A stretch of 64,000 nt of DNA from Candidatus Omnitrophota bacterium (GTDB lineage: Bacteria > Omnitrophota > Gorgyraeia > Gygaellales > Profunditerraquicolaceae): assembly GCA_041662125.1 (NCBI GenBank), contig JBAZTA010000001.1, positions 3,118 to 67,117 of the forward strand. The letters run 5' to 3'. The notes under the pieces are model-generated. The model was not told the origin of the DNA and ran no database searches. It saw only the letters and a list, made by a program, of their open reading frames with translations. Positions 1 to 63,333 of the stretch are shown here, in pieces; the stretch's first letter is position 1, and each line of letters begins with the position of its first letter. The position numbers and the translations under genes are program-made.

Positions 1-240
1 TATAAGTACTTGCTGTTCCCGTAGTATTATCATCTCCGGGAGAAGTCCAGCTTAAATTAATTTCTCCTCTATTTGTACCTGTGGAAGCAGCTAAATTACT
101 CACAGCCGCTGGAGCTGTGGTGTCGATTATTTCTGGAGTCTGAGTAATGTTTAAAACAGGTATTATTGAAAGATCAGAGCTATCGAGCGAAGTATTATGA
201 ACTTCAATAGCCAACAGATTATTGCCATCTTAAAAGATTT
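1..240 (-). pseudogene. Out-of-frame continuation of the 219..2795 ORF. The shifted frame reads [21 protein letters not shown]...APAAVSNLAASTGTNRGEINLSWTSPGDDNTTGTAST (FN3-like) and runs off the window start.
   Basis: Own translation of minus strand downstream of the TAA at 219-221; no stop in the shifted frame to position 1; domain continuity across the shift point. Confidence 0.45.
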
Positions 241-2795: not shown

Positions 2796-3030
2796 AGCTA
2801 TTTAAACACTTGTTTTATAATTCGTTTTTTAAAACACTCAATTTCAATTCAAATATAACACAAAAAATAACTCTTGTCAACTTTATATTGAATTTTATTA
2901 AACATGTTAATTATAGTATATAACTATAACCATAATAATTGGTTACAACTGAGCATTTAAACTAGGAAAGGTTAGCTTGTAATTTTTAATTTTACAAGTT
3001 CTAACAACTTTGTGATTTGAGTGGTAATTT

Positions 3031-8523: not shown

Positions 8524-9876
8524 TTACCAGCAGATACCATCATACTCCCTATTCTTACCTTTGTTTTCACAGATTCTTACCAAATCAATGATATTCTGTT
8601 CGGGTTTTACTAACTCAAGAATATTCTTAAACTCAGATGCCGAGTTTCCGATGATTATGGTCTCGGCGTGGTTAATTATATCGCTAATACTATCCACCAT
8701 CAACCTAGAAATATGCGGAATAGTATTAAGGATAAAATCGCGGTTAGCTCCGATAAGACTTGAAAGTTTCACATTATTGTCATAAATCTTGACTTCATAA
8801 CCTTTTCCTATAAGCCGCTCGATCAATTCGACCACCGGGCTTTCGCGCAGATCATCAGTACCAGCTTTGAAACTGAACCCCAGAACCCCAATCTTCTTCT
8901 TTCCCTTTGCCATAACCATGTTCAATCCCCGATCAACCTGAAGCTCATTACTAATAAGGATACTGTTAAGAATCGGTAGGTTCAAGTCAAGGCTACGTGC
9001 TTTATAGGTCAAAGCCCGTAGATCTTTAGGAAGACAAGACCCGCCGAAAGCAAACCCTGGTTTCATATAGTAGGGTGATATATTTAGTTTTGTATCTTGG
9101 CAGAAAATATTCATAACTGTATGGCTGTCGATATCGAGCTCCTTACAGATATTGCCGATCTCATTGGCAAAACCGACCTTTAAACCATGCCATACGTTAT
9201 CAACGTATTTAATCATTTCCGCGACTTCTACCTGGGAACGGATAAGCGGGGCTTTAAGTTTTTCATAGATCAAAGCTATGAGGTCGCCGCTTTCCTTGTC
9301 AATCTCGCCAATCACGATCTTAGGAGGGTTGTAATAATCATAGACAGCAGTTCCTTCGCGTAAAAATTCCGGATTAGAACAAACGCCGAAATCTTTGCCA
9401 ACAGTCTTACCGGAAGCTTCTTCTAAAGCCGGTATGACTAGATTACGCATAGTACCCGGTAAACAAGTGCTTCTAATGACTACCACGTGGCGATTGCTTT
9501 TGTTTTTTATGGCTTTACCGATTTCCTCGCAGACCTTTCGAATATGCTTCAGATCCAAGTTGCCGTTCAATTGGCTGGGAGTACCCACACAAACAAAAGA
9601 AATATCGGTTTTAGCTATCACTTCCTCAGTGTTAGTGGTAGCGATTAAACGACCGGCTTTTACATTCTTAGAAATAAGCTCTCCTATATCCTTCTCAATG
9701 ATAGGAGAACATCCCTGATTAATTGCATCAACTTTGCCTTTTGCCGGATCAACGCCTAAGACAGTATGGCCATCTTCAGCCAAGCAAGCCGCAGAAACCG
9801 CTCCAACATAACCGATACCAAAAATACTTATTTTCATTTCCACTCCTTTTTTTATAGAATTATCCGCAATATTCAA
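8524..9876 (-). CDS. Nucleotide-sugar dehydrogenase (UDP-glucose/GDP-mannose dehydrogenase family; possibly UDP-ManNAc dehydrogenase WecC-like given adjacent wecB)
   Basis: 450 aa; N-terminal Rossmann GIGYVGAVSAACLA; family-typical catalytic Cys region GGSCLPKD. Confidence 0.75.
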   Translation of the reverse strand: MNIADNSIKKGVEMKISIFGIGYVGAVSAACLAEDGHTVLGVDPAKGKVDAINQGCSPIIEKDIGELISKNVKAGRLIATTNTEEVIAKTDISFVCVGTPSQLNGNLDLKHIRKVCEEIGKAIKNKSNRHVVVIRSTCLPGTMRNLVIPALEEASGKTVGKDFGVCSNPEFLREGTAVYDYYNPPKIVIGEIDKESGDLIALIYEKLKAPLIRSQVEVAEMIKYVDNVWHGLKVGFANEIGNICKELDIDSHTVMNIFCQDTKLNISPYYMKPGFAFGGSCLPKDLRALTYKARSLDLNLPILNSILISNELQVDRGLNMVMAKGKKKIGVLGFSFKAGTDDLRESPVVELIERLIGKGYEVKIYDNNVKLSSLIGANRDFILNTIPHISRLMVDSISDIINHAETIIIGNSASEFKNILELVKPEQNIIDLVRICENKGKNREYDGICW

Positions 9877-13518: not shown

Positions 13519-16500
13519 TTACGCAGCGATCTGGCAATATAACTTTTCATATTCGCTGGTCATTTTTTCAATCGAAAATTGTTCTATAACTACTTGAAGC
13601 GCCCTTCTTCCCATAGTTATCGACTCTTGATGGTTCTGCAACATCCAGATAATAGCCTGCGCCAATTTGTCCGGAGATCTGGAAGGAATTAATAAACCTG
13701 TTTTACTATTAGCGATTACTTCCGGATTTCCTCCGACTTCAGTAGCGATTATCGGCAAAGCCGCTGACATCGCCTCTAAAAGGGTTATTGATAATCCCTC
13801 GCTTAAACTCGATAAGATGAATATATCTAATATTCTTAGAAGTTCTGGGATATCTCTTCTATCCCCAAGGAATATCACTTCTTTTTCTATATTCAATTGC
13901 CTGGCATACTGTTTAAGCTCTTCCATCATCGGACCGTTACCGATAAGCAGCAGTCTAATATCTGGCAGCTGCGAAAAAGCTATTTTGAATCCATCCATTA
14001 ACGTCTTGTGATCCTTGACCGGTGCTAACCTAGCGATATTTCCTATCACCCGGCAAACACTCGGTATACCAAAAACTGTCTTATCCGGTTTTAACGCGGC
14101 TTCATTACTGTATTTCTTAGTGTCTATGCCATTGTAGACGACCTTTATTTTCTTGGCATTTACTTTTGCTTTTACCAATAAATACTCCGCGACATTTTTG
14201 ACCACGCAAACTACCGCAGTGGTCCTGATAGCCAGGTAACGCAGGAAATATATAAGTTTAAACTCTTCAGGCCTTAAAGTTGAATGCTGGGTATGGATAA
14301 TCTTCGTTTTTTTAAGCCCGATACATGCCAATACCGCATAAAACCACTGGGCGGCATTATGAGAATGCACAATATCAATATTCTGATCTTTAAAAAGCTT
14401 ACTTAGTTTAATAATAAGCTTTAAATCTATGCCTTCTTGCTTTTTTTCTTGATAAAATGCAATACCCAACTGCTCAAACTCATTCTTCAGGAAATTCTTT
14501 TCTTTAAACGAACAAACACTGATGTTAAACCGGCTTTTATCTAAAGATCTGCACATTGCCAAGATCAAAGTTTCGATACCGCCAATATCGAAAGAATAAT
14601 TCAAGAATAACAAATTAATCTTTCTATCAATAAGTTTATTTCCTTTTTCCAAGGACAATGGAAAATTAATATTTAAGACTAGGCTTTTTAAGAATAAAAC
14701 TATCGCCTGGATAGTGAAATGGCATCGCATACTCTCAAGGATAAGATACTGTGATTCTTTAATATGTCTGTACCATAACAGGTCCTGGGCGTAATCAATG
14801 TTAATCCGTGCCGTGATTTTCGAGATAAACTTTTTATTGCGTGCAACGAATTCAGGATTATCTCGGGAAAAATTATCAATCACTTTTAGTCGGTTTTTGG
14901 TAACCAACTGATTACTTAAGGAATTAGCGCTTTTCTTGTACTTCACTAGAGGTTGAACAATCAAACCAATCTTATAATTCATACTTACCTTAAGCATAAT
15001 ATCTACATCTTCAGCAGTAGTTAAGCTCTCGCTAAATAAACCCACATCTTCAAGAATTTTCTTTTTAGTTAACATGTAAGAACAAGTTGTAGACTTCTTC
15101 TCAAGGAGCATTTTTAACACTTCTTTAACCCCTAATTCTTCCTTTTTAACAGTCTTTTTAATGTCCGAAAAAGATATTTTCTTATTATTTGCATTTAATA
15201 TCTCAACTTCCGAAATCACCATACCTAATTCTGGATTTGAACTTAACAAATCTATCTGCTTTTTAAGCTTCTCAGGATACCAACGGTCATCTGAATCTAA
15301 AAAAGCCACGTATTCTCCTTTACTTTCCTTAATAGCCTTGTTACGCGCATTAGAACAGCCAACATGTTCATAATACAAATATCTTATTTTATTTTTATAA
15401 CCATTTAATATTTCTTGAGTATTATCAGTAGAGCCGTCATCAGAAACAATGATTTCTACGTTTTTGTATGACTGATTGATAACACTATCGATCGCTTGAC
15501 AGATTAAATCAGCCCTATTATAGGTAGGTATAATAACGCTTATTAGCGGTTCGCCTGGTTTAATAGATATTTCAACCTTTCCTCTATCTTTATAACTCTT
15601 ATCCACATAAGAAATGACTTCTATAAGAAAACTTTTTAGATACAAAAATGTTGCTTTAAGAGAAAAATTATTAAATAGGCTTTTTCTTGCCTGATTGCGG
15701 CTATCATTGATATACCTGTATAACAACAAGTCTTCGGCATATCTTAAATGCACTACAGATATCGTTTTTTTTAGGATATCATTGTTTTCTTTTGCCAAAA
15801 CAGGATAGATTTTTTTAAACTTCGCAATGACCCGTAGCCGGTTCTGAGTAAATAAACTATGACTAAGCGAATTGGCGACTTTACGGTATTTTAAAAGCGA
15901 CTCCGGAAAAAGGGCAATCTTATACTCGGCTGCAATTCTTAGAAAATAATCGATATCTGCGGCTGTCTTTAAATTTTCATCAAACTCTCCAATATAAGCG
16001 ACAACATCCTTCCTAACGATCATATTAGAAAACATCCCCACGAGATTTTTAAGCATATAAGAAAGAACGTGTCCATCGCGAGGAAAATCATTCTTAAAGC
16101 TGCTGCAAAACAGTTTCTTGCCGTTTATATCGATAAACTCTATTTCGCTGATAATAGCTCCGAAACTATCGTTTTTTTCCATAAAGCCTATCAACTTTTG
16201 CAGTCTTTCCAAACACCAGATATCATCTGAATCCAAGAAAGCTATATATTTGCCTCTGGCTTTTTTAACCCCGAAATTCCTGGCGCTTGATTCTCCGCCG
16301 TTATCCTTATAATAATAATCTATTTTGTTCTCATAGGCTTCCAATACTTCCCGGGTATTATCTATTGAACCGTCATCTATAATAATGATCTCGAAATCTT
16401 TGGAAGTCTGCGCCAAAACGCTATCAATAGACTCCGATATGGTATCAGCCCTATTGTATGTCGGAATAAGTACGCTTACCAAAGGAACCTTATTTTCCAT
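13519..16500 (-). CDS. Three-domain glycosyltransferase (GT2-GT2-GT4 fusion)
   Basis: 993 aa; two VLIPTYNRAD/VIIPTYNRAD GT2 N-terminal signatures plus C-terminal GT4 motif LLEAMSAALPIIATEVGGNPE. Confidence 0.65.
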   Translation of the reverse strand: MENKVPLVSVLIPTYNRADTISESIDSVLAQTSKDFEIIIIDDGSIDNTREVLEAYENKIDYYYKDNGGESSARNFGVKKARGKYIAFLDSDDIWCLERLQKLIGFMEKNDSFGAIISEIEFIDINGKKLFCSSFKNDFPRDGHVLSYMLKNLVGMFSNMIVRKDVVAYIGEFDENLKTAADIDYFLRIAAEYKIALFPESLLKYRKVANSLSHSLFTQNRLRVIAKFKKIYPVLAKENNDILKKTISVVHLRYAEDLLLYRYINDSRNQARKSLFNNFSLKATFLYLKSFLIEVISYVDKSYKDRGKVEISIKPGEPLISVIIPTYNRADLICQAIDSVINQSYKNVEIIVSDDGSTDNTQEILNGYKNKIRYLYYEHVGCSNARNKAIKESKGEYVAFLDSDDRWYPEKLKKQIDLLSSNPELGMVISEVEILNANNKKISFSDIKKTVKKEELGVKEVLKMLLEKKSTTCSYMLTKKKILEDVGLFSESLTTAEDVDIMLKVSMNYKIGLIVQPLVKYKKSANSLSNQLVTKNRLKVIDNFSRDNPEFVARNKKFISKITARINIDYAQDLLWYRHIKESQYLILESMRCHFTIQAIVLFLKSLVLNINFPLSLEKGNKLIDRKINLLFLNYSFDIGGIETLILAMCRSLDKSRFNISVCSFKEKNFLKNEFEQLGIAFYQEKKQEGIDLKLIIKLSKLFKDQNIDIVHSHNAAQWFYAVLACIGLKKTKIIHTQHSTLRPEEFKLIYFLRYLAIRTTAVVCVVKNVAEYLLVKAKVNAKKIKVVYNGIDTKKYSNEAALKPDKTVFGIPSVCRVIGNIARLAPVKDHKTLMDGFKIAFSQLPDIRLLLIGNGPMMEELKQYARQLNIEKEVIFLGDRRDIPELLRILDIFILSSLSEGLSITLLEAMSAALPIIATEVGGNPEVIANSKTGLLIPSRSPDKLAQAIIWMLQNHQESITMGRRALQVVIEQFSIEKMTSEYEKLYCQIAA

Positions 16501-19052: not shown

Positions 19053-20555
19053 TTACCTTTTTATTCCCTTTAAAAGATCCTTGCGTTCATTTTCATTAAA
19101 GCCATAGAAAAAGCTGAAGATTATAAACAAAACTGCTCCCGCTAATCCTGCGGGAAACAACATCAAATATGAAGGCTTAATAAAACTTCTTAATGTAAAA
19201 GCAAAACATATGAAGAAAACCATGGATTTAATTACTGCCGGTAGTAGTGTTTTAAAGTAATAAAGGTACAATTTCAAACCAATTACCCTACAGACATAGA
19301 TGGGTTGAATGAATAAATTCATAACTGAATATGGGATTGTTACTCCCAATGCAATGCCCAAAAGGCCGTATTTTTTTACTAAAATCAAACTTAAAATCAG
19401 ATTAGAGAATCCTTCAATCGTATTAGCGAAAAAAGTGAACTTATGTTTAGAAATTCCGTAAAGTAATCCGCCTGTGGGAGTTTGCATAAGACAAAAAATA
19501 TTGGCTACGGTTAACATTGCCAACAAAGGATAAGCGGAAACATAAGCTTCCCCCATCCAAACCTGGATAAAATCGCGGCCCAAAATCAGAATTAAAGCAC
19601 CGATTAATATTGCTATATAACAGCTTATTTTGGTCGTAAATAGGAATTTTTCCCGTATTGAATTATAATCGTTTTTCCCTTCATATTGACTAAAAACCGG
19701 CATCAAAATCCCCATACTGCTCATCATAGCCTGGGAAAAATACTCTGTAAGACGTAAAGCTATGGAATAGATTGTGACTTCTTTCAAACCTAAAAAAGCG
19801 GCAATAATGAAGGAGGAAACTCGGAAACGCATCATCAGAGCGATATTCGCTCCCGCTGTTACAAAGCTGTATTTGAATATCGACTTGATTTTAGCCCTGT
19901 CTATCATATTTCGGGAAAAAACCATGTTTTTGTCCACTTTTTTCGCAAAAATAAAGGTCATGGCATACATCAGCATCTCGGTTGTAAAAGTTATCATCGC
20001 TAAAGTAAATAACCCGTTGTAGCGCTTCAAAAGAGTAAAAACTAAAGTTATGCGCAGAATATGGGTTACTATCTCTGTGGTAGTGTTTAAATCGTAACGC
20101 AGATGTGCTATCAGCACTCCTTTAAAAACTCGCATAGGAAAACCTATGGCTAAACTAAGACTAAGAACGGGTAGGATTGTTTGAAAAAGCCTTAGATTTA
20201 CGGCATCTTTTATAATATACGGTGATATAAAAACTAAGACTGCGGAAACCATAAGAATTACCACCCCGATAATCATATACAAATACAAAATGGTATTAAT
20301 AATCTTATTCATTTCCCGATCGTCATTGACTCCTATAGCCCTGGAAACAAATCTTTGTACTGCCTGCATCAGACCGAAATCAAACAGACCATAATATCCC
20401 ATGAAAGTGCCAATCAATACCCATAACCCATACATTTTGTCCCCAATGAAATGGATAATAAACGGCATCATCAACAATCCTACAATGGCGCTGATGAAAA
20501 ACTCAGTCACTCGGAAAGCCGAACCTTTTACCAAACGCTGTGCTTTTGAACTCAT
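19053..20555 (-). CDS. Polysaccharide/oligosaccharide flippase (MOP/Wzx family)
   Basis: 500 aa, ~12-14 TM segments, family-typical N-terminus. Confidence 0.6.
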   Translation of the reverse strand: MSSKAQRLVKGSAFRVTEFFISAIVGLLMMPFIIHFIGDKMYGLWVLIGTFMGYYGLFDFGLMQAVQRFVSRAIGVNDDREMNKIINTILYLYMIIGVVILMVSAVLVFISPYIIKDAVNLRLFQTILPVLSLSLAIGFPMRVFKGVLIAHLRYDLNTTTEIVTHILRITLVFTLLKRYNGLFTLAMITFTTEMLMYAMTFIFAKKVDKNMVFSRNMIDRAKIKSIFKYSFVTAGANIALMMRFRVSSFIIAAFLGLKEVTIYSIALRLTEYFSQAMMSSMGILMPVFSQYEGKNDYNSIREKFLFTTKISCYIAILIGALILILGRDFIQVWMGEAYVSAYPLLAMLTVANIFCLMQTPTGGLLYGISKHKFTFFANTIEGFSNLILSLILVKKYGLLGIALGVTIPYSVMNLFIQPIYVCRVIGLKLYLYYFKTLLPAVIKSMVFFICFAFTLRSFIKPSYLMLFPAGLAGAVLFIIFSFFYGFNENERKDLLKGIKR

Positions 20556-29836: not shown

Positions 29837-31822
29837 TTAACCTCTTTTTAGATTGCTTCGTCGCGCTTCGCGCTCCCCGCAATGACACGGGGGGCTATTT
29901 TCAGCTATAAACTGCTTGTGCAGTAAGAGTGTTGTAATAACACCAACAATTGCCATGTTGTCTTTGGCGCTCAATAAAGATGTATCAGTTGTTTTACACT
30001 TCTTTACTAAGTTAGTAACCATTAAAGGATCAAAATAATTCGTTTTTTTTAAGTTATCTTCGGATAACAAATCTTCTACATAGGAATGCTGCTTACCATG
30101 GAAGAAACTCGCGCTATCTGGAGATCTATATCCTTGTTTTTTTCGTTTGCATATTTCTTCTGGTAAATAAGGCTTAGCGATTTTCTTTAGAAGATACTTT
30201 TCATTCATAACTTTTAGTTTCATTTGAGGTGGAAGTTGCGCGCAGAATTCTATAACCCTATAATCCAGGAAAGGAAACCTACCCTCTACAGAATTAGCCA
30301 TCATCATTCTATCCCCTTGAGAAGATAAAAGGTTTCCTGAAAGCAATGTAGCTGCCTCAATATATTGAGCTTGAGAAAGACTATCCCAACTGGTGAATTG
30401 TTTAGGAAAAGACTCTTCAAAGTTATCAACACTTTTGCAATTATTTAACTCGTTTTTAACTTCACGTGAGAATAACGATTTAATTCTTGAAGTTATGTCC
30501 CATCTCGGCAAGTGAGAATAAGATTTTGTATCGGTTTTCAATAAATGATTGCGATAAAACCCTTCTAAAAAAGCAGAAGTTGTCTTGGGCCAGTTTGGTA
30601 TATAGCTGTAAAGTTTTCGCATTAACAAAGGCCTCGATCTTGAATCAGGGTATTTTGCCCAAAAACGGCGGATTTTCATCTCTCGGAAAAGGTCATAACC
30701 ACCTAAAATCTCATCCGCGCCTTCACCGGTAAGAACAACTTTGATATTATTCTGCCGGACAAGTTTAGATAAAATAAATAAAGGAGCAGGAGCAGTCCTA
30801 ATTAAAGGTTTCTCCGCATGCCAAACAACCTGAGGCATAATTTCGCCTATACCAGAATACCCACAGGTAACACCTTTATGCTCTGTTCCAAGAAAATCAG
30901 CCATTTTACGCTGGAAGGCGCCTTCATCGTAATTGGAATCGCTAAAACTTACTGAAAAAGTCTCCAGCTTATTATTAAAATGCTTTTTAACTAACGCGGT
31001 AATAAGTGAAGAATCGAGCCCTCCGCTTAAATAAGCTGCCACAGGGACGTCCGCGCGCAATCGCAGCATAATTGAATCTTTCAATAATTCAAGCAATTCC
31101 GATGCATACTCATCTTCGTTACTTTTTTGGGTTTCTCCTGGAGTATAATAATCAAGTTCCCAATACCGTTTAATATCAATAGTTCCATTGCGCGCAAGAA
31201 GATAATGCGCAGGAGGAAGTTCTTTTATCCCTTCAAAAACGGTCTGTTCAGAAATTGTCGACCAAAAAGTAAATACCTGGTCAAACCCCTTAACGTCAAA
31301 TGCTCGATTTACGCGAGTATCGCTAAAAATCGCCTTAATTTCTGAAGCAAATATCAAAGAACCATCGACAGTCGTATAAAAAAGAGGACGAATTCCCATT
31401 CTATCCCTTGCTAAAAGTAGGCTTTTCTGTCTGGTATCCCAAATCGCAAAAGAAAACTGACCGTTTAAATCGTCAAACATGCCTGTGCCCTTTTCTTCAT
31501 AAAGGTGAATAAGAACTTCAGTATCTGACTTAGTATAAAACTGATGCCCTTTCTTTACTAATTCTTCACGAATTTCCAAATAATTAAATATTTCACCGTT
31601 AAAAACGATCCAAATACTTTTATCTTCATTATGCATCGGCTGTTGACCGCCGCTTAAATCAATAATACTTAACCGTGCGTGTCCCAAACCAATATCGGAA
31701 TCTTTATAAATGCCGAATTCATCAGGGCCGCGATAACGCATAGTTGTTATCATTCGCTTTAGCAGTTCAGTGTCTATTTGGTGTTGTTTGGTTAGGTTAT
31801 AGATTCCTGCAATGCCACACAT
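29837..31822 (-). CDS. Asparagine synthase (glutamine-hydrolysing) family amidotransferase
   Basis: 661 aa; MCGIAG N-terminal Cys nucleophile; SGGLDSS PP-loop. Confidence 0.8.
   Translation of the reverse strand: MCGIAGIYNLTKQHQIDTELLKRMITTMRYRGPDEFGIYKDSDIGLGHARLSIIDLSGGQQPMHNEDKSIWIVFNGEIFNYLEIREELVKKGHQFYTKSDTEVLIHLYEEKGTGMFDDLNGQFSFAIWDTRQKSLLLARDRMGIRPLFYTTVDGSLIFASEIKAIFSDTRVNRAFDVKGFDQVFTFWSTISEQTVFEGIKELPPAHYLLARNGTIDIKRYWELDYYTPGETQKSNEDEYASELLELLKDSIMLRLRADVPVAAYLSGGLDSSLITALVKKHFNNKLETFSVSFSDSNYDEGAFQRKMADFLGTEHKGVTCGYSGIGEIMPQVVWHAEKPLIRTAPAPLFILSKLVRQNNIKVVLTGEGADEILGGYDLFREMKIRRFWAKYPDSRSRPLLMRKLYSYIPNWPKTTSAFLEGFYRNHLLKTDTKSYSHLPRWDITSRIKSLFSREVKNELNNCKSVDNFEESFPKQFTSWDSLSQAQYIEAATLLSGNLLSSQGDRMMMANSVEGRFPFLDYRVIEFCAQLPPQMKLKVMNEKYLLKKIAKPYLPEEICKRKKQGYRSPDSASFFHGKQHSYVEDLLSEDNLKKTNYFDPLMVTNLVKKCKTTDTSLLSAKDNMAIVGVITTLLLHKQFIAENSPPCHCGEREARRSNLKRG
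29851..29898 (-). other. Conserved 5'-leader motif (GTGTCATTGCG-GC hairpin with GAAG loop-CGAAGCAATC) upstream of the N-acetyl sugar amidotransferase gene
   Basis: Shares GATTGCTTCG + GC hairpin (CTTCG loop) + CGCAATGACAC with 44139-44205. Confidence 0.5.
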
Positions 31823-31833
31823 TGTTTAGCTCC

Positions 31834-33240
31834 TTACACCAACTCGTTTCTTCTAATTTTCCCGGTTGAAGTTTTAGGTAATGAATCCCTAAATTCTACT
31901 ACTTTAGGTAATTTATATAAAGCCAGGTTTTGTTTGCAAAACAGTAAAACATCTCTTTCATTCATATCCACGCCATTCTTAACCACACACAATTTAATCG
32001 CCTCTCCTAAGATCTCATCAGGCATTCCTACTGCCGCGCATTCCAATATCCCCGGCATACGACAAACTACTTCCTCTATTTCCAATGGGCTGATCCGGTT
32101 AGCGCCGCTTTTGATCATTTCTTTCTTACGGCTGACTAGATAAATGAAGCCATCTTCATCAATCTTAGCTAAATCTCCTGTCCAAAGGCCTTCTTTCTTT
32201 AGAACTTTCTCGGTTTCTTCAGGAGAATTCCAGTAACCCAACATTATATTAGCTCCCCTGGCCACAATTTCACCTATTTCACCAGGGTTAACCTTCTGAC
32301 CTGCTTCATCTAAAACATCAAGTTCTACTCCTGGAATGGCTTTACCAATTGAGCCCATCTTTTTAGATAATGATTCAGGCTCCAAATAGGTTAATCTTGC
32401 GCAGGCTTCGGTCTGGCCATACATAACGTAGAAATTGATTTGAGGGAACAAGTTCTGAAATTCCTTAATCATAGCAAGAGCCATAGCTCCACCAGCCTGA
32501 GTTACATACCTTATTTTGTCTAACTTATAATTACGCAGAGCTGATTTACGCAATAATATCGAATAATGTGAAGGAACACCGGCAAAAGCAGTAACGCCTT
32601 CTCTTTCCATTGTTTCTAAGATCACATTAGGATAAAGAAAACGATTATCTAAAACCAAAGTTGCCCCCGCTTTAATATGCGTTGTTAAAAGCGAAGTCCC
32701 ATAAGAATAATAAAAGGGTAAAATAACCATCATTCTATCTGATGCGCTCAGATTGAGATATTTGACAATAGAATCTGCATTGGCATTGAGGTTAGCGTGG
32801 GAAAGCATGACACCTTTGGGTTTACCGGTCGTGCCGCTGGTGTAGATGATCATTGCAAGATCGCTAGAAAAAATAGGGACAGTCCCCAAAAAGCGGGGAC
32901 AGTCCCTATTTTTTTCTATCCCAGTTTTTTTAATAATGAATTTTGGTGAACAGTCGGATAAAATAACGGTAAGTTCTCTATCTACCATTTGGGTATTTAA
33001 GGGAACGACTACGCCACCTGCTTTCAATATCCCAAAGAAAGAGCTGATATATTCAGGGGAGTTTTCTAAAAGCAAAGCGACTCTTTCACCTTTTTTAAAG
33101 CCTTTTTCAGTCAGATAACCAGCTACAGCATTAGAACGCCTATCAAGCTCGGAATAGGTAATGCGCTCTTTCTGATAGACTACAGCTATCTTATCAGGAT
33201 ATTGTTTAGAGCTATTTTCTAATGATTCGTGTAACAGCAT
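31834..33240 (-). CDS. AMP-dependent synthetase/ligase (acyl-CoA/acyl-ACP ligase, FadD-like)
   Basis: 468 aa; IIYTSGTTGKPKGV AMP-binding motif. Confidence 0.8.
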   Translation of the reverse strand: MLLHESLENSSKQYPDKIAVVYQKERITYSELDRRSNAVAGYLTEKGFKKGERVALLLENSPEYISSFFGILKAGGVVVPLNTQMVDRELTVILSDCSPKFIIKKTGIEKNRDCPRFLGTVPIFSSDLAMIIYTSGTTGKPKGVMLSHANLNANADSIVKYLNLSASDRMMVILPFYYSYGTSLLTTHIKAGATLVLDNRFLYPNVILETMEREGVTAFAGVPSHYSILLRKSALRNYKLDKIRYVTQAGGAMALAMIKEFQNLFPQINFYVMYGQTEACARLTYLEPESLSKKMGSIGKAIPGVELDVLDEAGQKVNPGEIGEIVARGANIMLGYWNSPEETEKVLKKEGLWTGDLAKIDEDGFIYLVSRKKEMIKSGANRISPLEIEEVVCRMPGILECAAVGMPDEILGEAIKLCVVKNGVDMNERDVLLFCKQNLALYKLPKVVEFRDSLPKTSTGKIRRNELV

Positions 33241-37351: not shown

Positions 37352-37429
37352 AAGACCGGGTCTTTCCAATATTTAAGTCCTACAACTTAAGACCCGGTCT
37401 TATCAAGTGTTCGCCCAAGACCCGGTCTT
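37352..37429. repeat. REP/BIME-like cluster: 3 copies of AAGACC(C/G)GGTCTT
   Basis: Copies at 37352-37364, 37389-37401, 37417-37429; between acetyltransferase start and glmM stop. Confidence 0.8.
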
Positions 37430-38796
37430 TATACTCCTAATTCCTGTTTGATCACTGAAGCTAAAGAATGGGCGATGGAATCGATTTCTGCCTTATCCTT
37501 GCCTTCTACCATGACGCGAGCCAAGGTTTCAGTACCCGAATATCGTAAAAGTATCCTGCCATTATCTTTAAGCTGCGCCAGACTGTGTTTTAAAGCGTCT
37601 CGGATCACAGGAACCTCTTCAAATGGTTTCTTTTCCTTAACTTTGATATTTACTAATATCTGCGGGTATTTTTTCATACAAGAGGATAACGCGCTAAGTT
37701 TCCTTCCTGTTTGCTGCATAACTTTCAAAATCTCCAAAGAGACTATCAGCGCATCACCTGAAGTTGACTGTTGCAGGAAAATAATATGGCCTGCCTGCTC
37801 GCCACCAAAAATCAGGTTGTTTTTCAGTAGAGCCTCAGTGACATTCCTATCTCCAACGTCAGTGCGAATAAGTTTTCCTCCTGCCTTCAGAAGTGCTTCT
37901 TCCAAGCCGAAATTACTCATGACTGTCGCCACAATGCTTTTCATAGGCAGCTTATTTTCTTTAATAAGTTGAGTGCCGACTATTGCCATAATAAAATCAC
38001 CGTCAAGGATATTGCCCAGTTCATCCGACAGGATCACCCGGTCTCCATCTCCATCATAAGAAAAACCGATATCCGCCTTATTCTTAAGTACTGCTTTTGC
38101 CATATTCTCAGGGTGAAGAGCTCCGCAGTTTAAATTGATATTTTTACCGTTTGGCTGGTCGTTTAAAACAAATACTTTCGCGCCTAATTCTTTAAATAAC
38201 TGTACCGCAATGCTATAGAGAGCGCCATGAGCGCAATCAACGACAATTTTGAGCTCGCTTAAGTCCAAATTGGATGCTTTTGATTTCAGGAAATCAATGT
38301 AAAGCCTTTCTCCATCATGCGCGTGAGTTACCAACCCTGATTCATCAACAGATAATTTGTCGGAATCGATAAAGCTGCCACTCACTAATTCTTCCATCAT
38401 CTTTTCTTGCGTATCAGAAAGTTTATACCCGGAACTTGAGAAAAACTTAATGCCGTTTTCTTCCGCGCGATTGTGAGACGCGGAAATCATAATCCCCATA
38501 TCAGCTTTCAATCTTCTGGTTAAAAATGACAGGCCCGGAGTCGAGACAATACCCACTAAAGACACATCTACTCCGCAAGCAGAAATACCGCCTACTAAAA
38601 GTTTTTCGATTACTTCACAACTAAGCCTGGTATCCTTACCGATAATGATCTTATAATGCTTCTGTCCTATTTTTCTTTGATTATGCAACAATTGCGCAGC
38701 TGCCTTACCAATTTTTAATATCATTTCATCGGTTAAAGGATATTCTCCGGGTGTTCCGCGGATCCCGTCAGTTCCGAAAAGTTTGTTTTTGCTCAT
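37429..38796 (-). CDS. glmM: Phosphoglucosamine mutase
   Basis: 455 aa; LFGTDGIRG N-terminus; active-site SASHNRAEENG. Confidence 0.85.
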   Translation of the reverse strand: MSKNKLFGTDGIRGTPGEYPLTDEMILKIGKAAAQLLHNQRKIGQKHYKIIIGKDTRLSCEVIEKLLVGGISACGVDVSLVGIVSTPGLSFLTRRLKADMGIMISASHNRAEENGIKFFSSSGYKLSDTQEKMMEELVSGSFIDSDKLSVDESGLVTHAHDGERLYIDFLKSKASNLDLSELKIVVDCAHGALYSIAVQLFKELGAKVFVLNDQPNGKNINLNCGALHPENMAKAVLKNKADIGFSYDGDGDRVILSDELGNILDGDFIMAIVGTQLIKENKLPMKSIVATVMSNFGLEEALLKAGGKLIRTDVGDRNVTEALLKNNLIFGGEQAGHIIFLQQSTSGDALIVSLEILKVMQQTGRKLSALSSCMKKYPQILVNIKVKEKKPFEEVPVIRDALKHSLAQLKDNGRILLRYSGTETLARVMVEGKDKAEIDSIAHSLASVIKQELGV

Positions 38797-52054: not shown

Positions 52055-52128
52055 TGCCCCTGGCTGGAATCGAACCAGCCACACGCAGTTTAGGAAACTG
52101 CTGCTCTATCCTTATGAGCTACAGGGGC
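52055..52128 (-). tRNA. tRNA-Arg (anticodon CCT)
   Basis: Hand-folded cloverleaf: acceptor GCCCCTG/CAGGGGC, D-stem GCTC/GAGC, anticodon stem GCAGT/ACTGC with loop TTCCTAA, T-arm GCTGG-TTCGATT-CCAGC, discriminator A, CCA not encoded. Confidence 0.85.
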
Positions 52129-57829: not shown

Positions 57830-58657
57830 TTACCCCATCTTCTTTAACTCTTCATCCTTAATAGTAAAACTATACTGCGGGGAAGGAAATGTCCCTTCCG
57901 TAACCTCTTTTTTATATTCTTGGACTGCTTTTGTTATTACAGCAGAAACATCAGCATATTTTTTTACGAATTTAGGCGTGTAGCGCTCAAAAAGGCCCAA
58001 CAGGTCATAGGTGACCAAAACCTGTCCGTCACAGAGTACCCCCGCGCCGATACTAATTGTGGGGATCTTTATTTTTTCCGTTATCATACCGGCAATTTTA
58101 TCTGGCACACATTCAAGCACGATCGCAAAACACCCCAGATCAGCAAGCGCGCATGCTTGTTGGATGAGTTTCTTGGCGCTTTCAGCATCCTTTCCCTGAA
58201 CTTTAAATCCGCCTAATTTATCCGCAGTCTGAGGCGTTAAACCGATATGCCCCATAACCGCAATACCGGATTTGATGAGCGTCCCGGTAACCTCTAAACA
58301 GCGGTCAAACCACTCCAGCTTCACCGCGTCAGCGCCTGCTTCATCAATAAACCGGCGCGCATTTGTTAGCGCATTTTCCGGTTTGAGCTGATACGATTCA
58401 AAAGGCATATCCCCTACAACCAATGCCTGTTTTACCGCGCGGCTGACTGCCTTAGTATGATGTAACATCTCAACCATCCCTACCTGTGTCGTCGAATCAA
58501 GGCCCAAAACAACATTTGCCAGGGAATCTCCTACTAAAATGATATCTATCCCTGCCCTGTCAATTAAGGAAGCCAAAGGATAATCATATGCGGTAAGCAT
58601 GGTAATTTTGCGTTTTCCCTTAAGCGATACAATATCCTGAACACTTATTTTCTTCAT
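57830..58657 (-). CDS. panB: 3-methyl-2-oxobutanoate hydroxymethyltransferase
   Basis: 275 aa; KITMLTAYDYP...ILVGDSLANVVLG. Confidence 0.85.
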   Translation of the reverse strand: MKKISVQDIVSLKGKRKITMLTAYDYPLASLIDRAGIDIILVGDSLANVVLGLDSTTQVGMVEMLHHTKAVSRAVKQALVVGDMPFESYQLKPENALTNARRFIDEAGADAVKLEWFDRCLEVTGTLIKSGIAVMGHIGLTPQTADKLGGFKVQGKDAESAKKLIQQACALADLGCFAIVLECVPDKIAGMITEKIKIPTISIGAGVLCDGQVLVTYDLLGLFERYTPKFVKKYADVSAVITKAVQEYKKEVTEGTFPSPQYSFTIKDEELKKMG

Positions 58658-58659
58658 TT

Positions 58660-59901
58660 TTACTGTGTAAATTGCGCTACTAACAATGCGATAGAAAGCC
58701 CGACCATCGCTACAACCGTCCCGATAGCAAAAAAATTATAAACTTTTGAGTTGGTATATTTACCCATCAAACGTTTATTATTGACCAAAAGAAGCATAAA
58801 GATCAAAACAAACGGCAGGAGCAAACCATTGGTTGCCTGAGAGATCAACATGATCGGGATGAGTTTAACACCCGGCAATAAGATCACCGCCGCGCCGATA
58901 ATAATAATAGCGGTATACAGAGAATAAAATTGCGGCGCTTCGCGGAACCGGCGGTTAACCCCTACTTCCCATCCCATACCTTCACAAACCGAGTACGCCG
59001 TCGATAAAGGAAGGATACAGGCAGAGAAGATCGACGCATTCAAGAGCCCAAACGCAAATAAATAAAAACAATGCTGGCCCGCGAAAGGTTTAAGAGCCAG
59101 TGCCGCATCTTTAGCTGTTTCTATCCGGATACCGTGTCTGAATAAGGTATTAGCGCAAACAATAACAATAAAAACAGCGATTATATTAACCATAAATGCT
59201 CCCACCACAACATCAAGCTTACTGTATTTATAGTTTTTAAGCTTAATATCCTTTTCCACCACTGAGGCCTGCTGGTAAAACTGCATCCACGGGGCAATGG
59301 TCGTTCCAATGACCCCCATGAGCATAAATAAATACGCTTTGTCAAAACGGAATTCCGGCTTAATGGAACTGGCAAAAACCTCATTCCAGTCTGGTTTTGA
59401 CAAAAATCCGGAAACCACATAACAAACATAAAAAAGACAGGCGAACAAAAACACCTTTTCCACTGATTTATAGGTCCCCTTGACGATCAGCCACCAGACA
59501 AATAAGGCGGATCCGCTTACCATAAGATATTTATTGATACCCAACAGTTCTGCGCTGGCGGCAATACCTGCGAATTCGGAGATCGTATTAAAAATATTCG
59601 ATAATATAAGGACAACCATCGCGTAAAAGGTGACCTTGACGCCAAACTCCTCCCTGATCAGGTCCGCTAAGCCCTTTCCCGTGACTACCGCCATCCTGCT
59701 GCACATTTCCTGAATAATTACCAGCGCGATGATGATCGGGATAAAAGACCAGATAAGTGAATACCCGAAATGCGCGCCGGCTACAGAATACGTCGTAATT
59801 CCGCCGGCGTCGTTATCGACATTAGCCGTGATCATTCCCGGGCCCATAATGGAAAGGAAGATCAGGATCTCAGCCCAGAATTTTTTTATTTTCTTGATCA
59901 T
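58660..59901 (-). CDS. NRAMP (SLC11)-family divalent cation transporter homolog lacking canonical DPGN and MPH metal-site motifs
   Basis: 413 aa; ~11 TM; GPGMITANVDNDAGG...FGYSLIW aligns to NRAMP TM1 region. Confidence 0.55.
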   Translation of the reverse strand: MIKKIKKFWAEILIFLSIMGPGMITANVDNDAGGITTYSVAGAHFGYSLIWSFIPIIIALVIIQEMCSRMAVVTGKGLADLIREEFGVKVTFYAMVVLILSNIFNTISEFAGIAASAELLGINKYLMVSGSALFVWWLIVKGTYKSVEKVFLFACLFYVCYVVSGFLSKPDWNEVFASSIKPEFRFDKAYLFMLMGVIGTTIAPWMQFYQQASVVEKDIKLKNYKYSKLDVVVGAFMVNIIAVFIVIVCANTLFRHGIRIETAKDAALALKPFAGQHCFYLFAFGLLNASIFSACILPLSTAYSVCEGMGWEVGVNRRFREAPQFYSLYTAIIIIGAAVILLPGVKLIPIMLISQATNGLLLPFVLIFMLLLVNNKRLMGKYTNSKVYNFFAIGTVVAMVGLSIALLVAQFTQ

Positions 59902-61253
59902 AAGGTCGTTTTGGTTTTGATTTTCTTAAGCCTGCGCCAGGCGATCGCGATAACCTGGCTTAAAATATCATCAACGGTGATTATCCCCTGCAAAACGTTA
60001 TTTTCATCAACCACAGGAATAGCATTATACTTATATTTTTCCATACGATAGGCGACTTCTTTAACGCTGCTGTCTAAATGCACACAATACGTTTTGGGGA
60101 AAGCGGCATTCTGTATCGGTTCCTGCGGTTGGGCTAAAAGAAGCCTTCTAAAACTAGTTGATCCGATCAAATGGTTAACCTCATCAACAATATAAACAAA
60201 CTGCGCTGGTTCAACTTTAAAGGTGCGTTCCTTAATTTGCTTTAAAACGGTTTCAATAACAGTATCTTTGGGAAACGATATATATTCCGCGACCATCAAA
60301 CCTCCCGCGGAATCACTGGAATACCCTAATAACTGCGATAATTTCTTGGCTTGCTTACTTTCCATCAGGCTTAAAAACCGTTCTGAGGTATCTTTCGGTA
60401 ATTGCTCCAGAATATCGGTGGCTTCATCAGAAGGGATACTGTTTAAAATATCAACGATTTCTTTCGGGTCTACTTCTTCGATCAATGATTTCTGCGCTTT
60501 CGCGTCGATATTCATGAATATTTTCGCTTTATTTTTCAGGTCTAATGACTTAAAAAGAACACTCTGATGCTGCATATCAAGGTCAAGGAATATCTCGCCG
60601 AGATCAGCGGCAGGAATATTATTGAATTGTTTCTGCGGAACATTTATCTTAATGGTCATACTGACCGGATTAACCGACAAAGGCTGGATATTTTTCCAGG
60701 TGATCAAATGCTCATTTTCCAAATATGGGGCTTTATCATTAATAAGGCGCACCAGGAAATCCACAACCTTCTCGAACCCTAAACGGCGCAGCAATCCCCG
60801 CAAACTGATATCAACGTGAGCGATCATTAAAGACTGGTCAACTTCCAAAAGATGGATATCGTTGATCCGGATAACTTTATGATTATAGGTATCAACGACC
60901 TGCTGGTCAAGGATATCACGGCGAAGCGTCAATGCTTCCTTATTATTGTGCTTTTCCTTAAAACTGAGCTTTGTTTTATCGGTTTTTAAGGTCACCTCTT
61001 TTCCATCGATTTCCTGAATATCCGCCCAATCAACTACCGCGTATCGACGGCTAAAAAAACCGGTGCGGATGATCATCTGCGCCGATTGCGGATAGACTTC
61101 GCTGGGTTTTACCATAACATCATATAATTCACCGACGAGCTCTCCCTTACTATCGATAACCGGCCTATCCATAAGCGCAGAGAAATAAATAAACATCTTC
61201 TTGGCATTTTCATTGACTAAATCTTGTCTTTCCTGCTTCCCGAACATAGCCAA
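59898..61253 (-). CDS. Soluble MgtE-type cytoplasmic module (PRC-barrel-like N-terminus, MgtE_N domain, CBS pair) without a transmembrane domain
   Basis: 451 aa; MgtE_N signature ...SDSAGGLMVAEYISF; tandem CBS; 4-bp overlap with downstream NRAMP gene. Confidence 0.55.
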   Translation of the reverse strand: MAMFGKQERQDLVNENAKKMFIYFSALMDRPVIDSKGELVGELYDVMVKPSEVYPQSAQMIIRTGFFSRRYAVVDWADIQEIDGKEVTLKTDKTKLSFKEKHNNKEALTLRRDILDQQVVDTYNHKVIRINDIHLLEVDQSLMIAHVDISLRGLLRRLGFEKVVDFLVRLINDKAPYLENEHLITWKNIQPLSVNPVSMTIKINVPQKQFNNIPAADLGEIFLDLDMQHQSVLFKSLDLKNKAKIFMNIDAKAQKSLIEEVDPKEIVDILNSIPSDEATDILEQLPKDTSERFLSLMESKQAKKLSQLLGYSSDSAGGLMVAEYISFPKDTVIETVLKQIKERTFKVEPAQFVYIVDEVNHLIGSTSFRRLLLAQPQEPIQNAAFPKTYCVHLDSSVKEVAYRMEKYKYNAIPVVDENNVLQGIITVDDILSQVIAIAWRRLKKIKTKTTL

Positions 61254-61261
61254 CCTTTTTC

Positions 61262-62218
61262 TTATTGAAAGCCATCCTGCGCTTCGATGACCTTTATCGT
61301 AACACCGGGAAACTCTTTTGCCAGCGCTTCCCCTTTTTGTCTTCCTAAAACAAATATCGCTGTTGACAAAGCATCGGCAGTCAAACCATCATCAGCAATA
61401 ACCGTTACCGATATAACCTTTGAATCCGCTGGGTATCCGGTCTTTGGATCCATGATATGCGCGTAACGCAGGTTATTGTTAGTAAAATACTGTTCGTAAT
61501 CGCCGGAGGTAGATACTGCTTTATTCTTGAGCGCCATTTCCGCGACAAAACTTTGATGCCGCGGGTCCCGTACGGCGACATGCCAGGGCTCACCGAATTT
61601 ATCACCTAAACAATAGATCTGCCCGCCGGCATTGATCAAACAATTTTTTATGCCTGCGTCTTTTAATGCCTGCACGGCGCAATCAACCGCGTATCCTTTG
61701 GCAATAGCTCCGGCGTCTAATTTCATCCCGGAAAGCTTGAATTTTACCACAGTATCATGCAAATTAAAAATGATTTTTTCAAATCCGACACAACTCAAAA
61801 CTTTTTCTATTTCTTCTTTACCGGGAACCCGGTAATTTTTATCGGTAAAACCCCATACATCCATAAGAGGGCCGATCGTAATATCAAAGGCGCCTGCGCT
61901 TTTTTCCCAAAAGAAACGCGCTTTATCAAGCAGATACAAAGTTTGCAGGCTTACCCGCCATTGCCCACGCTGGTTTAACTCAAAAATATCACTCCCTTTT
62001 TTATATTTACTTAACAAATTCTCGATCTTCTTGATCTCATCAAAGACAATGGCAGGCGCCCGCTTTTCAGGAGAAACAACCTCAACAAACGTCCCCATCA
62101 TGACGCGCCGATCACGGTAAAGCTCATGGCTGCGGCAGCCGGGAAGAAAGTTGGAAATCAAAAGCAAAACGGAAAAAGACAGGAATAAAGAACTATTGCG
62201 TCTAGTAATTCTGTTCAT
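61262..62218 (-). CDS. apbE: FAD:protein FMN transferase (ApbE family lipoprotein); real start MNRITRR
   Basis: Signal peptide with LPGC lipobox; C-terminal DDGLTADALSTAIFVLG ApbE motif. Confidence 0.75.
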   Translation of the reverse strand: MNRITRRNSSLFLSFSVLLLISNFLPGCRSHELYRDRRVMMGTFVEVVSPEKRAPAIVFDEIKKIENLLSKYKKGSDIFELNQRGQWRVSLQTLYLLDKARFFWEKSAGAFDITIGPLMDVWGFTDKNYRVPGKEEIEKVLSCVGFEKIIFNLHDTVVKFKLSGMKLDAGAIAKGYAVDCAVQALKDAGIKNCLINAGGQIYCLGDKFGEPWHVAVRDPRHQSFVAEMALKNKAVSTSGDYEQYFTNNNLRYAHIMDPKTGYPADSKVISVTVIADDGLTADALSTAIFVLGRQKGEALAKEFPGVTIKVIEAQDGFQ

Positions 62219-62233
62219 GAACTCTAGCTTCTT

Positions 62234-62347
62234 AAGACCGGGTCTTATCAATGATAAAACGCAACCTTTCAAGACCCGGTCTTATTGCTCGCTTTAAAAG
62301 ACCCGGTCTTGAATTGTAAACCTAAGTTATAGATAAGACCGGGTCTT
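62234..62347. repeat. REP/BIME-like cluster: two 50-nt hairpin elements (4 copies of the 13-mer)
   Basis: 62234-62246, 62271-62283, 62298-62310, 62335-62347. Confidence 0.8.
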
Positions 62348-62406
62348 AAAGTATTATTGGTTACTGGATAGGTATAGTTAAGCTGTTAATTGAATAGTTT
62401 GAGAAG

Positions 62407-63333
62407 TTATAATGCGACAGGATAGCTTGCTTCTATAGTCTTGATCAGATCCACCAGCATCGCATTTACCGGTACAGAAATGCTTAATTCCTGGCCAAAA
62501 CGCACAATGACACCGTTAATAAAATCGATCTCCGTGCGCTGCTTGCGTAAAACATCCTGCAGCATGGAAGAAATGTTTCCTGAGGTAGCTTCACAGACCG
62601 CTTCAACTTTAGCCAACGGATCGTCATAGATCAACTTGATCCTTTTTCGTTTGGCAATTTTGACTGCTTCTGTCACCGCTTCGATCAAAATCCTGCGGCT
62701 GCCCTCAAATTCAATAAGAGCGCCATTATGCAAATGGGTAAGGGCGCTCAGGGCATTGATACCGACATTAACAATTAATTTTGACCATACAAGGCTTTTA
62801 ATATCGCGCGAAACCTTTGTTTCAAAACCTGCTTTATTGAAAAGTTCCCGGATAGAACGCATCGCGACAGGAATCTTACCATCGATAAGCCCCATCACCG
62901 TCTCACCCTTACCCGCGTATTTTATGCGGCCGGGTGCAAGCAGGATCGAACCAAGGTTTGTCACTCCCCCGATGACTTTTTCTGCTCCGACGCATTCTCC
63001 CAGGACTTCACAATTGCCAATACCATTCTGCAAGGTAAGGACCAGGGTATCATTGCCCACTAAAGGCTTTGCCTGAGCGATCGCGATCTTAGTATCATAG
63101 GATTTTACGCAGACCAGCAATAAATCAACTATCCCGATCTCACCCGGATCAACGCTTGCCTTCACTTTTGCATTCCAACTGCCCGAGACCCCCTCAACAT
63201 TGATCCCCTGTTTATTGATCAGGCTGGCGCGTTCTTTATGCTTATCAAAAAGCCAGATCTCTTCTTTTGTTTTAGAGAAATACGCGGCGAACAAACATCC
63301 CATTGCTCCGGGGCCGACAATAGCTATTTTCAT
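62407..63333 (-). CDS. panE: 2-dehydropantoate 2-reductase (ketopantoate reductase)
   Basis: 308 aa; MKIAIVGPGAMGCLFAAY Rossmann; ApbA/PanE C-terminal domain. Confidence 0.75.
   Translation of the reverse strand: MKIAIVGPGAMGCLFAAYFSKTKEEIWLFDKHKERASLINKQGINVEGVSGSWNAKVKASVDPGEIGIVDLLLVCVKSYDTKIAIAQAKPLVGNDTLVLTLQNGIGNCEVLGECVGAEKVIGGVTNLGSILLAPGRIKYAGKGETVMGLIDGKIPVAMRSIRELFNKAGFETKVSRDIKSLVWSKLIVNVGINALSALTHLHNGALIEFEGSRRILIEAVTEAVKIAKRKRIKLIYDDPLAKVEAVCEATSGNISSMLQDVLRKQRTEIDFINGVIVRFGQELSISVPVNAMLVDLIKTIEASYPVAL

Follow-up and report, generated by a model that had tools for sequence, protein, structure and literature searches.

A pore-less MgtE-like protein encoded directly upstream of an NRMT-type transporter in a Candidatus Omnitrophota bacterium: a candidate regulatory subunit acting in trans

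INTRODUCTION

The NrmT family of Nramp-related Mg2+ transporters (NRMTs) was named by Shin et al. 2014 (PLoS Genet), who reported that a gene for a homologue of the cytoplasmic domain of MgtE precedes most NrmT genes (PMC4072509). These 'mgtE-nramp operons' are shown in Fig. S5 of the same paper, and many operons of this mgtE-like/nrmT type have an M-box riboswitch upstream (Shin et al. 2014, PMC4072509). Here we describe such a gene pair in a stretch of 64,000 nucleotides from Candidatus Omnitrophota bacterium (assembly GCA_041662125.1, contig JBAZTA010000001.1, positions 3,118 to 67,117), called the window below. The downstream gene of the pair encodes the NRMT protein and the upstream gene encodes a soluble protein with MgtE domains, which we call the partner.

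The closest described transporter, EleNRMT (7QIA/7QIC; Ramanadane et al. 2022, PMC8806188), is an H+-uncoupled transporter of Mg2+ and Mn2+ with 11 helices, which works alone in proteoliposomes. T224 of EleNRMT is needed for Mg2+ transport, and the position of its G58 is Asn in Mn2+-type Nramps (PMC8806188). The NRMT of C. acetobutylicum likewise works alone in complementation (PMC4072509). In A. capsulatum, co-expression of the pair Acp2976/Acp2977 gave no further gain in Mg2+ rescue, and the NrmT-group protein rescued an Mn2+ defect better than an Mg2+ defect (PMC4072509). Shin et al. speculated that the MgtE-like protein serves cytoplasmic feedback regulation or has metal chaperone activity (PMC4072509). 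It is mentioned neither in the EleNRMT structure paper (PMC8806188) nor in Cellier 2022, and wider literature searches found no further papers on it.

The partner/NRMT pair of the window is an ordinary Omnitrophota example of an operon type known since 2014. A preliminary description of this DNA had proposed a new domain combination, and this does not hold, because the pairing was reported by Shin et al. 2014 (PMC4072509) and the same gene pair is present in Eggerthellaceae. What the comparison adds concerns the partner. We lean, with guarded confidence, towards the reading that it is a Mg2+-responsive regulatory subunit restraining the uncoupled Mg2+ uniporter NRMT in trans. The conservation of its second PRC-barrel, the complementarity of forms acting in cis and in trans and a charge switch in the plug helix were not found in the literature searched, and are modest additions to what is known.

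RESULTS

Gene pair at the locus

The pair consists of the following features.

58660..59901, minus strand: NRMT gene (413 amino acids, 11 hydrophobic regions), from PF01566 and a full-length match to EleNRMT
59898..61247, minus strand: partner gene (soluble protein of 449 amino acids), from the open reading frame and Pfam/NCBIfam domains
59898..59901, minus strand: ATGA overlap of the partner stop codon TGA and the NRMT start codon ATG, from the sequence

The preliminary description had given two genes overlapping by 4 bp, as is indeed the case, and the ATGA junction is of the kind typical of translational coupling. Read from TTG, the open reading frame of the partner spans 59898-61253 on the minus strand (451 amino acids). 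The ATG at 61247 is the likelier start, because an AAAAAGG Shine-Dalgarno-like site lies 7 nucleotides upstream and the same start is used in the database protein P0001 (449 amino acids, 'CBS domain-containing protein', Candidatus Omnitrophota), which is 100% identical to the partner. Residue numbers of the partner follow this 449-residue form.

The neighbourhood is tightly packed: apbE, a gap of 14 nucleotides, the partner gene, the 4-bp overlap, the NRMT gene, a gap of 2 nucleotides and panB, all co-directional, with recO and panE further upstream and glyQS and ppdK downstream. No signs of mobile elements were seen in the gene neighbourhood. The operons of Shin et al. (C. acetobutylicum Ca_c0685; A. 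capsulatum Acp2976/Acp2977; PMC4072509) share the gene of a pore-less homologue of the MgtE cytoplasmic part immediately upstream of an NrmT-group Nramp gene. The pair of the window differs from them in lacking an M-box and in lying inside the housekeeping string apbE-partner-NRMT-panB. In C. acetobutylicum, moreover, the partner is split into two genes, whereas here it is a single 449-residue protein. The pair is not a chance product, because the Pfam E-values of the two genes are 1e-103 and 2e-22 and the arrangement recurs at every assessable related locus (see below).

As a side observation, the partner, NRMT and apbE genes sit between the pantothenate genes panE (62407-63333, upstream) and panB (57830-58657, downstream), in a stretch that covers 57830-63333.

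Metal site of the transporter

The NRMT protein matches PF01566 (Nramp) with 346 bits over profile positions 1-356 of 357, and its hydropathy profile has 11 hydrophobic regions. Its top match in the PDB is EleNRMT (7qia; E 7e-113, residues 10-410 against 34-434), to which BLASTP gives 45% identity over 409 amino acids (E 1e-122). The earlier reading as a NRAMP homologue with 11 transmembrane (TM) segments agrees with this family match, with the hydrophobic regions and with the end-to-end alignment. Two motifs define the metal site.

59800..59817, minus strand: TM1 metal-site motif DNDAGG, from the alignment to EleNRMT; DAGG replaces DPGN
59287..59307, minus strand: TM6 metal-site motif GTTIAPW, from the alignments to EleNRMT and DraNramp

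In TM1, D31-A32-G33-G34 aligns with D55-A-G-G58 of EleNRMT (D31=D55, G34=G58), and the replacement of DPGN by DNDAGG, claimed before, is found at 59800-59817. In TM6, G199-T200-T201-I202-A203-P204 is identical to EleNRMT 223-228, with T200 at the position of T224. The Nramp motif 'GATVMPH' of DraNramp pairs with 'GTTIAPW', which puts A203 at the Met position (EleNRMT A227) and W205 at the His position (EleNRMT W229). The statement that TM6 has neither Met nor His at these places was right, but the string cited for it, NASIFSACILPLS, is not TM6: it comprises amino acids 288-300 (59002-59040) in the eighth hydrophobic segment. The true TM6, as given by the alignments to EleNRMT and DraNramp, is GVIGTTIAPWMQFYQQ (amino acids 196-211). 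Further equivalents of the EleNRMT site are E109 (E133) and Q355 (Q379), and Q210 lies at the position of N234 in helix 6b. Both TM1 'NDAGG' and TM6 'IGTTIAPWM' are identical between the two proteins.

The changes that mark NRMTs are all found: TM1 retains its Asp and has Gly for the Asn of DPGN, and in TM6 the Ala is Thr and the Met is a small residue (Ala). The histidines of helix 6b in the H+ pathway are replaced by Trp (W205) and a non-protonatable residue (Q210). Since EleNRMT, of known structure and function, has the same residues at its metal site, the assignment of the downstream gene as an NRMT-type (Mg2+-type) Nramp relative is well supported by sequence, and the altered metal site proposed in the preliminary description is borne out, with no Mn-type site in TM1 and TM6. 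Identity at the site residues suggests H+-uncoupled Mg2+ transport by the NRMT protein as well. EleNRMT is a full-length homologue with all site residues and has the same partner gene upstream in close Eggerthellaceae relatives. It differs in coming from Actinomycetota and in having been studied as a transporter alone, whereas the Omnitrophota protein of the window is known from its sequence.

Domains and fold of the partner

An AlphaFold2 model of the full partner, built with an alignment of 71 sequences (pLDDT 92.3, pTM 0.81), places two barrels at 19-87 and 108-190, MgtE_N at 205-307, a CBS pair at 314-424 and a C-terminal helix at 425-447. On the DNA these parts are as follows.

60987..61193, minus strand: PRC-barrel 1, amino acids 19-87, from Pfam PRC, AlphaFold2 and Foldseek
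60678..60926, minus strand: PRC-barrel 2 with a helical insert, amino acids 108-190, from AlphaFold2, Foldseek and alignments A1 and A2
60327..60635, minus strand: MgtE_N helical domain, amino acids 205-307, from PF03448 and the alignment to 2yvy/2yvx
59976..60308, minus strand: CBS pair, amino acids 314-424, from PF00571 and Foldseek
59901..59975, minus strand: C-terminal helix VDDILSQVIAIAWRRLKKIKTKTTL, from the alignment; it lies where MgtE has its plug helix

Pfam finds PRC at 22-94 (25.1 bits against a cutoff of 21.2), MgtE_N (PF03448) at 214-314 (80 bits) and CBS (PF00571, 58 bits). The mgtE model TIGR00400 is matched over positions 23-255 of 450 only (161 bits, cutoff 232.75), Pfam gives no match to the pore domain PF01769, and no convincing TM segment is present in the partner, with no 19-residue window above a mean hydropathy of 1.6. 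Because the pore domain is absent, only half of the TIGR00400 model is matched and no segment resembles a TM helix, the partner is, by these matches, the cytoplasmic half of MgtE only and not an MgtE channel. The description of the upstream gene as PRC-like, MgtE_N and CBS domains without a pore thus stands.

The C-terminal half of the model superposes on the MgtE cytosolic domains 2yvy, 8gpv, 2oux and 8gps with target-normalised TM-scores of 0.83-0.93 and root-mean-square deviations (rmsd) of 1.6-2.2 A (Foldseek). A separate AlphaFold2 model of amino acids 1-205 (pLDDT 93.8) has two barrels and matches CdpB1/CdpB2 (8qzo, E 5e-5), MTH1859 and the reaction-centre H subunit, the last with rmsd of 2-2.5 A over about 63-68 aligned columns. 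In the models, the N-terminal half of the partner is a tandem PRC-barrel. The likeness to CdpB1/CdpB2 (archaeal cell division, 8QZO) and to the H subunit is in fold only, with 9-20% identity and no functional link. The PRC-barrels of CdpB1/CdpB2 and of the reaction-centre H subunit are protein-protein docking domains at membranes. No paper linking a PRC-barrel to MgtE was found in the literature searched.

PRC-barrel 2 is the most conserved stretch of the family and has the densest invariant residues (alignments A1 and A2): D119, D130 and R154 are invariant, and D114, Q116, R127, N129, D146, R155 and W184 are conserved in at least 90% of sequences. These residues might form a ligand or cation site. 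A role of PRC-barrel 2 as a docking surface specific to NRMT was considered and rejected, as the signature is equally conserved in pore-fused relatives without an NRMT neighbour.

Sensor residues and C-terminal tail

The Mg2+ sites were taken from Maruyama et al. 2018 (PMC5882242) and mapped by HMMER alignment to 2yvy/2yvx. The sequence of T. thermophilus MgtE (TtMgtE) in the family alignment matches the PDB one over residues 27-262 and is in accord with all residue numbers given in PMC5882242. The site Mg4, which bridges the N and CBS domains, is kept in the partner with D274 (TtMgtE D91) and D427 (D247), and so is Mg6 with D278 (D95). D274 and D278 lie within the MgtE_N domain, and D427 directly follows the CBS pair at the start of the C-terminal helix. 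Ligands of other sites are replaced: E59 by K242 (Mg7), D226 by K406 and D250 by S430 (Mg5), and in the plug helix E258 by R438 (Mg2) and D259 by R439 (Mg3). At the ATP site of the CBS pair, equivalents of R187 and F227 are present (R367, Y407), and Y170, D188 and N203 are not kept, the positions being changed to F350, R368 and F383.

In comparison with T. thermophilus MgtE (2YVX/2YVY/2ZY9), the partner shares the N domain and CBS fold, the ligands of Mg4 and Mg6 and a helix at the plug position. It differs in having no TM pore and about 200 extra N-terminal residues as tandem PRC-barrel, in lacking the ligands of Mg5 and Mg7, and in ending with this helix, a basic tail that has R/R for E258/D259. 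This tail reads IAIAWRRLKKIKTKTTL; amino acids 431-449 have a net charge of +6, and the C-terminal helix contains Trp.

Pairing at related loci and selection

The same gene pair, whose search in other genomes had been proposed, was found wherever it could be judged: all 94 assessable loci, in which partner identity runs from 28 to 92%, have an NRMT-type gene directly downstream of the partner gene. Among genome loci the count is 19/19 (identity 59-92%, mostly Omnitrophota). A scan of metagenomes with the 17-sequence alignment A2 gave 80 loci (identity 28-76%), and all 75 assessable ones have a same-strand Nramp-family gene directly downstream; five loci with <270 nucleotides of downstream sequence were left out of this count. 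The linked transporters have GTT[IV][AT]P in TM6 in 79 of 79 readable cases and the exact DAGG in TM1 in 85 of 94, and none has a DPGN or MPH motif of the Mn2+ type. An identical 4-bp ATGA overlap is present in 37 of 91 related loci, and the junction is at most 30 nucleotides in 66 of the 91. Moreover, a gene for a PRC+MgtE_N+CBS protein of 447-453 amino acids lies upstream of the Eggerthellaceae NRMTs with 87-91% identity to EleNRMT.

Both genes are under purifying selection, with ratios of non-synonymous to synonymous substitution rates (dN/dS) against close orthologues of 0.05-0.06 for the partner and 0.04 for the NRMT.

Five loci (L004, L006, L009, L025 and L032) form a separate observation, as their partners are 66-75% identical to that of the window and their NRMTs only about 53%. 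These NRMTs make up their own subclade, with 76-88% mutual identity, together with that of L053, whose partner is 38% identical to that of the window. This suggests transporter exchange between operons or very unequal evolutionary rates.

Wider partner family and pore-fused relatives

An exhaustive search of 1.84 billion representatives with the partner, clustered at 50% identity with E<=1e-30, gave a family of 409 clusters. Among the best 150 of these 409 clusters, 124 are pore-less with 390-480 amino acids, and 17 have about 600 amino acids. The longer forms have the same four domains (PRC-PRC-MgtE_N-CBS) followed by 4-6 predicted TM segments, and the MgtE pore PF01769 is detectable in 2 of 5 that were tested. 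Proteins of this kind from two lineages, represented by P0420 and P0392 (about 600-656 amino acids), have the tandem PRC-barrel ahead of MgtE_N, CBS and pore, and none of their six loci (L104-L109) has a Nramp neighbour. A gap of about 720 nucleotides is present upstream of P0420.

These channels share the module with the partner at about 30% identity over the full length, with identical signature residues in PRC-barrel 2. They differ in having their own pore in cis (PF01769), an acidic plug helix and no Nramp neighbour. Because the pore-fused forms are without a Nramp neighbour, the module is found in two settings, fused in cis to an MgtE pore and directly upstream of an NRMT gene; no locus examined has the four-domain module in both.

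The same division appears in the sensor residues. In the 124 soluble representatives the equivalents of D91, D95 and D247 are Asp in 89-97%, and those of E258 and D259 are mostly Lys or Arg or absent. In the pore-fused relatives the equivalent of E258 is acidic in 16 of 17 and that of D259 in 17 of 17. In the soluble forms the tail after the CBS pair has a median of 18 residues and a mean net charge of +2.2; in the pore-fused ones the mean charge is -5.1.

Two further representatives, P0371 (203 amino acids) and P0370 (292 amino acids), cover just one half of the partner, either PRC or MgtE_N+CBS. Truly split genes, of the kind reported for C. acetobutylicum, or fragments at contig ends could account for them.

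M-box scan

No M-box was detected by Rfam, either at the gathering threshold over the whole window or in E-value mode over 58-64 kb, and riboswitch control of the window's pair is rejected on this ground. Of 32 related loci scanned, 31 have none as well. The single one is L065, a distant metagenome locus with a partner about 30% identical, where an M-box of 134 bits (3757-3946) lies directly upstream of the partner gene; it served as the positive control of the scan. With this position upstream of a partner gene, L065 offers a link between the mgtE-like/nrmT operon type and Mg2+ that does not depend on published work.

DISCUSSION

Our data are consistent with an operon of the mgtE-like/nrmT type already described, in which two genes serve Mg2+ uptake. 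The enlarged metal site of NRMT (D31, G34, T200, A203, W205, Q355) would admit hydrated Mg2+ (and Mn2+), and by homology to EleNRMT the ion would move down the membrane potential uncoupled from H+. The partner corresponds to the entire cytoplasmic regulatory part of the PRC-barrel-containing branch of MgtE, detached from its pore, and would be produced along with NRMT by way of the 4-bp overlap. It would sense cytoplasmic Mg2+ at the ligands bridging the N domain and the CBS pair, D274/D427 (Mg4), and at D278 (Mg6), and the compact Mg2+-bound form would then dock on the cytoplasmic face of NRMT and restrain transport. A contact with the transporter or the membrane would most probably be made by the C-terminal helix, which is basic and contains Trp. 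In this way an ungated, uncoupled uniporter would come under negative feedback of the kind inherent in MgtE and CorA. The data show the gene structure, the families, the site residues, the folds, the pairing, the complementarity with pore-fused forms and the purifying selection; Mg2+ as substrate and signal, a physical interaction and the direction of regulation are inferred.

A H+-uncoupled Mg2+ uniporter without feedback risks overloading the cell, and a sensor acting in trans would explain how NRMTs are safe. As a discovery the locus has little weight, since structure and transport data of an NRMT exist and the pairing with MgtE-like genes was published in 2014. However, the comparative data, that is, the constant pairing, the cis/trans split, the kept ligands, the charge switch of the plug helix and the PRC-barrel, make the question of the partner's role sharper and testable.

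Several observations weigh against a Mg2+-responsive restraint of this kind. Within the partner, four of the seven cytoplasmic Mg2+ sites of MgtE appear without their ligands, the ATP site of the CBS pair seems to be kept only in part, and the most conserved part, PRC-barrel 2, is by its residue pattern not specific to NRMT-linked forms. At the locus, no M-box or other Mg2+-responsive element is present upstream of the pair, which has only the 14-nucleotide gap to apbE. From the characterised systems, NRMTs transport without the partner, as seen in the complementation with C. acetobutylicum NRMT and in EleNRMT proteoliposomes, and the effect of the partner is argued by analogy with MgtE. EleNRMT is a monomer, but the modules of MgtE work in dimeric form. 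Co-expression of the A. capsulatum partner gave no gain in rescue, although an inhibitor would go unnoticed when rescue is assayed at low Mg2+, and the transporter of that pair did better with the Mn2+ defect (PMC4072509).

A different role, which we consider unlikely, is that of a positive factor, either a metal chaperone or sink at the inward-facing vestibule or a protein that activates or stabilises NRMT and opens it at low Mg2+ or Mg-ATP. The acidic ligand pairs conserved in the module and the many invariant Asp and Arg residues of PRC-barrel 2 would suit such a protein, and the strict 1:1 genetic coupling would equally suit an obligatory accessory subunit. However, free Mg2+ in cells is millimolar, and a chaperone seems needless at such levels. 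Metal chaperone activity is the alternative that Shin et al. 2014 named themselves (PMC4072509), but NRMTs need no partner for transport, whether in vivo or in vitro (PMC4072509, PMC8806188), and co-expression brought no better rescue (PMC4072509). Moreover, the homologous module of MgtE shuts its pore on binding Mg2+ (PMC5882242).

It is also improbable, in our estimation, that the pair serves mainly the uptake of Mn2+ or another divalent ion, with the partner responding to that ion or to a nucleotide and not to Mg2+. EleNRMT also carries Mn2+ (PMC8806188), and the A. capsulatum homologue that rescued the Mn2+ defect better has an adjacent MgtE-like gene and no M-box (PMC4072509), and the locus of the window has no M-box either; the replacement of several MgtE Mg2+-site ligands in the partner points the same way. 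On the other hand, the NRMT protein and EleNRMT agree in the site residues of TM1 and TM6. One of these is T200, a specific requirement for Mg2+; the Met residue of Mn2+ selectivity and the His residues of H+ coupling are absent from the NRMT protein. In addition, the Mg4 and Mg6 ligands are conserved throughout the family and an M-box precedes the homologous operon L065.

The preliminary description had also raised the case of a truncated pseudogene of a full-length mgtE. Such a remnant would merely happen to stand next to a Nramp gene, without functional link, and although the missing pore and the match to only the first half of TIGR00400 (161 bits, below cutoff) would fit, there is practically no chance of this: it is ruled out by the dN/dS of 0.05-0.06, by the size of the 409-cluster family, in which 124 of the best 150 clusters share the pore-less length, and by the conserved, family-specific basic tail, while NRMT is adjacent in 94 of 94 assessable loci and its start overlaps the partner's stop codon, leaving no room for a remnant of the pore.

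If the partner is a Mg2+-responsive restraint, its history can be drawn further, tentatively and with considerable doubt. The four-domain cassette may have arisen on MgtE channels and then been cut loose, now closing an unrelated carrier of LeuT fold in trans with Mg2+, with the plug helix re-engineered from acidic to basic for the vestibule of NRMT or for the membrane, and with the Asp/Arg cluster of PRC-barrel 2 as an extra ligand site in both cis and trans versions. Such a detachable gate, if real, would be a sensory module transplanted between two structurally unrelated families of Mg2+ transport.

Other features of the window

The window as a whole is a long co-directional stretch, because all 51 plausible genes of at least 150 amino acids are on the minus strand, the sole two plus-strand open reading frames of that size lying inside minus-strand genes, and the GC skew is negative in every 2-kb bin. 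The GC content is 0.34-0.40 in positions 1-44000, as against 0.42-0.47 in 44-64 kb. A polysaccharide-biosynthesis cluster lies in positions 1-44000. Features of the window away from the pair are listed here.

219-5214, minus strand: two large proteins with Ig and fn3 domains
8524-9876, minus strand: UDP-glucose dehydrogenase
13519-16500, minus strand: fusion protein of 993 amino acids with GT2-family and GT4/GT1-family glycosyltransferase domains
19053-20555, minus strand: flippase
29837-31822, minus strand: asparagine synthase
31834-33240, minus strand: AMP-dependent ligase
37429-38796, minus strand: phosphoglucomutase
52055-52128, minus strand: tRNA gene (61 bits), from Rfam; the sole family reaching its gathering score in the 64-kb window

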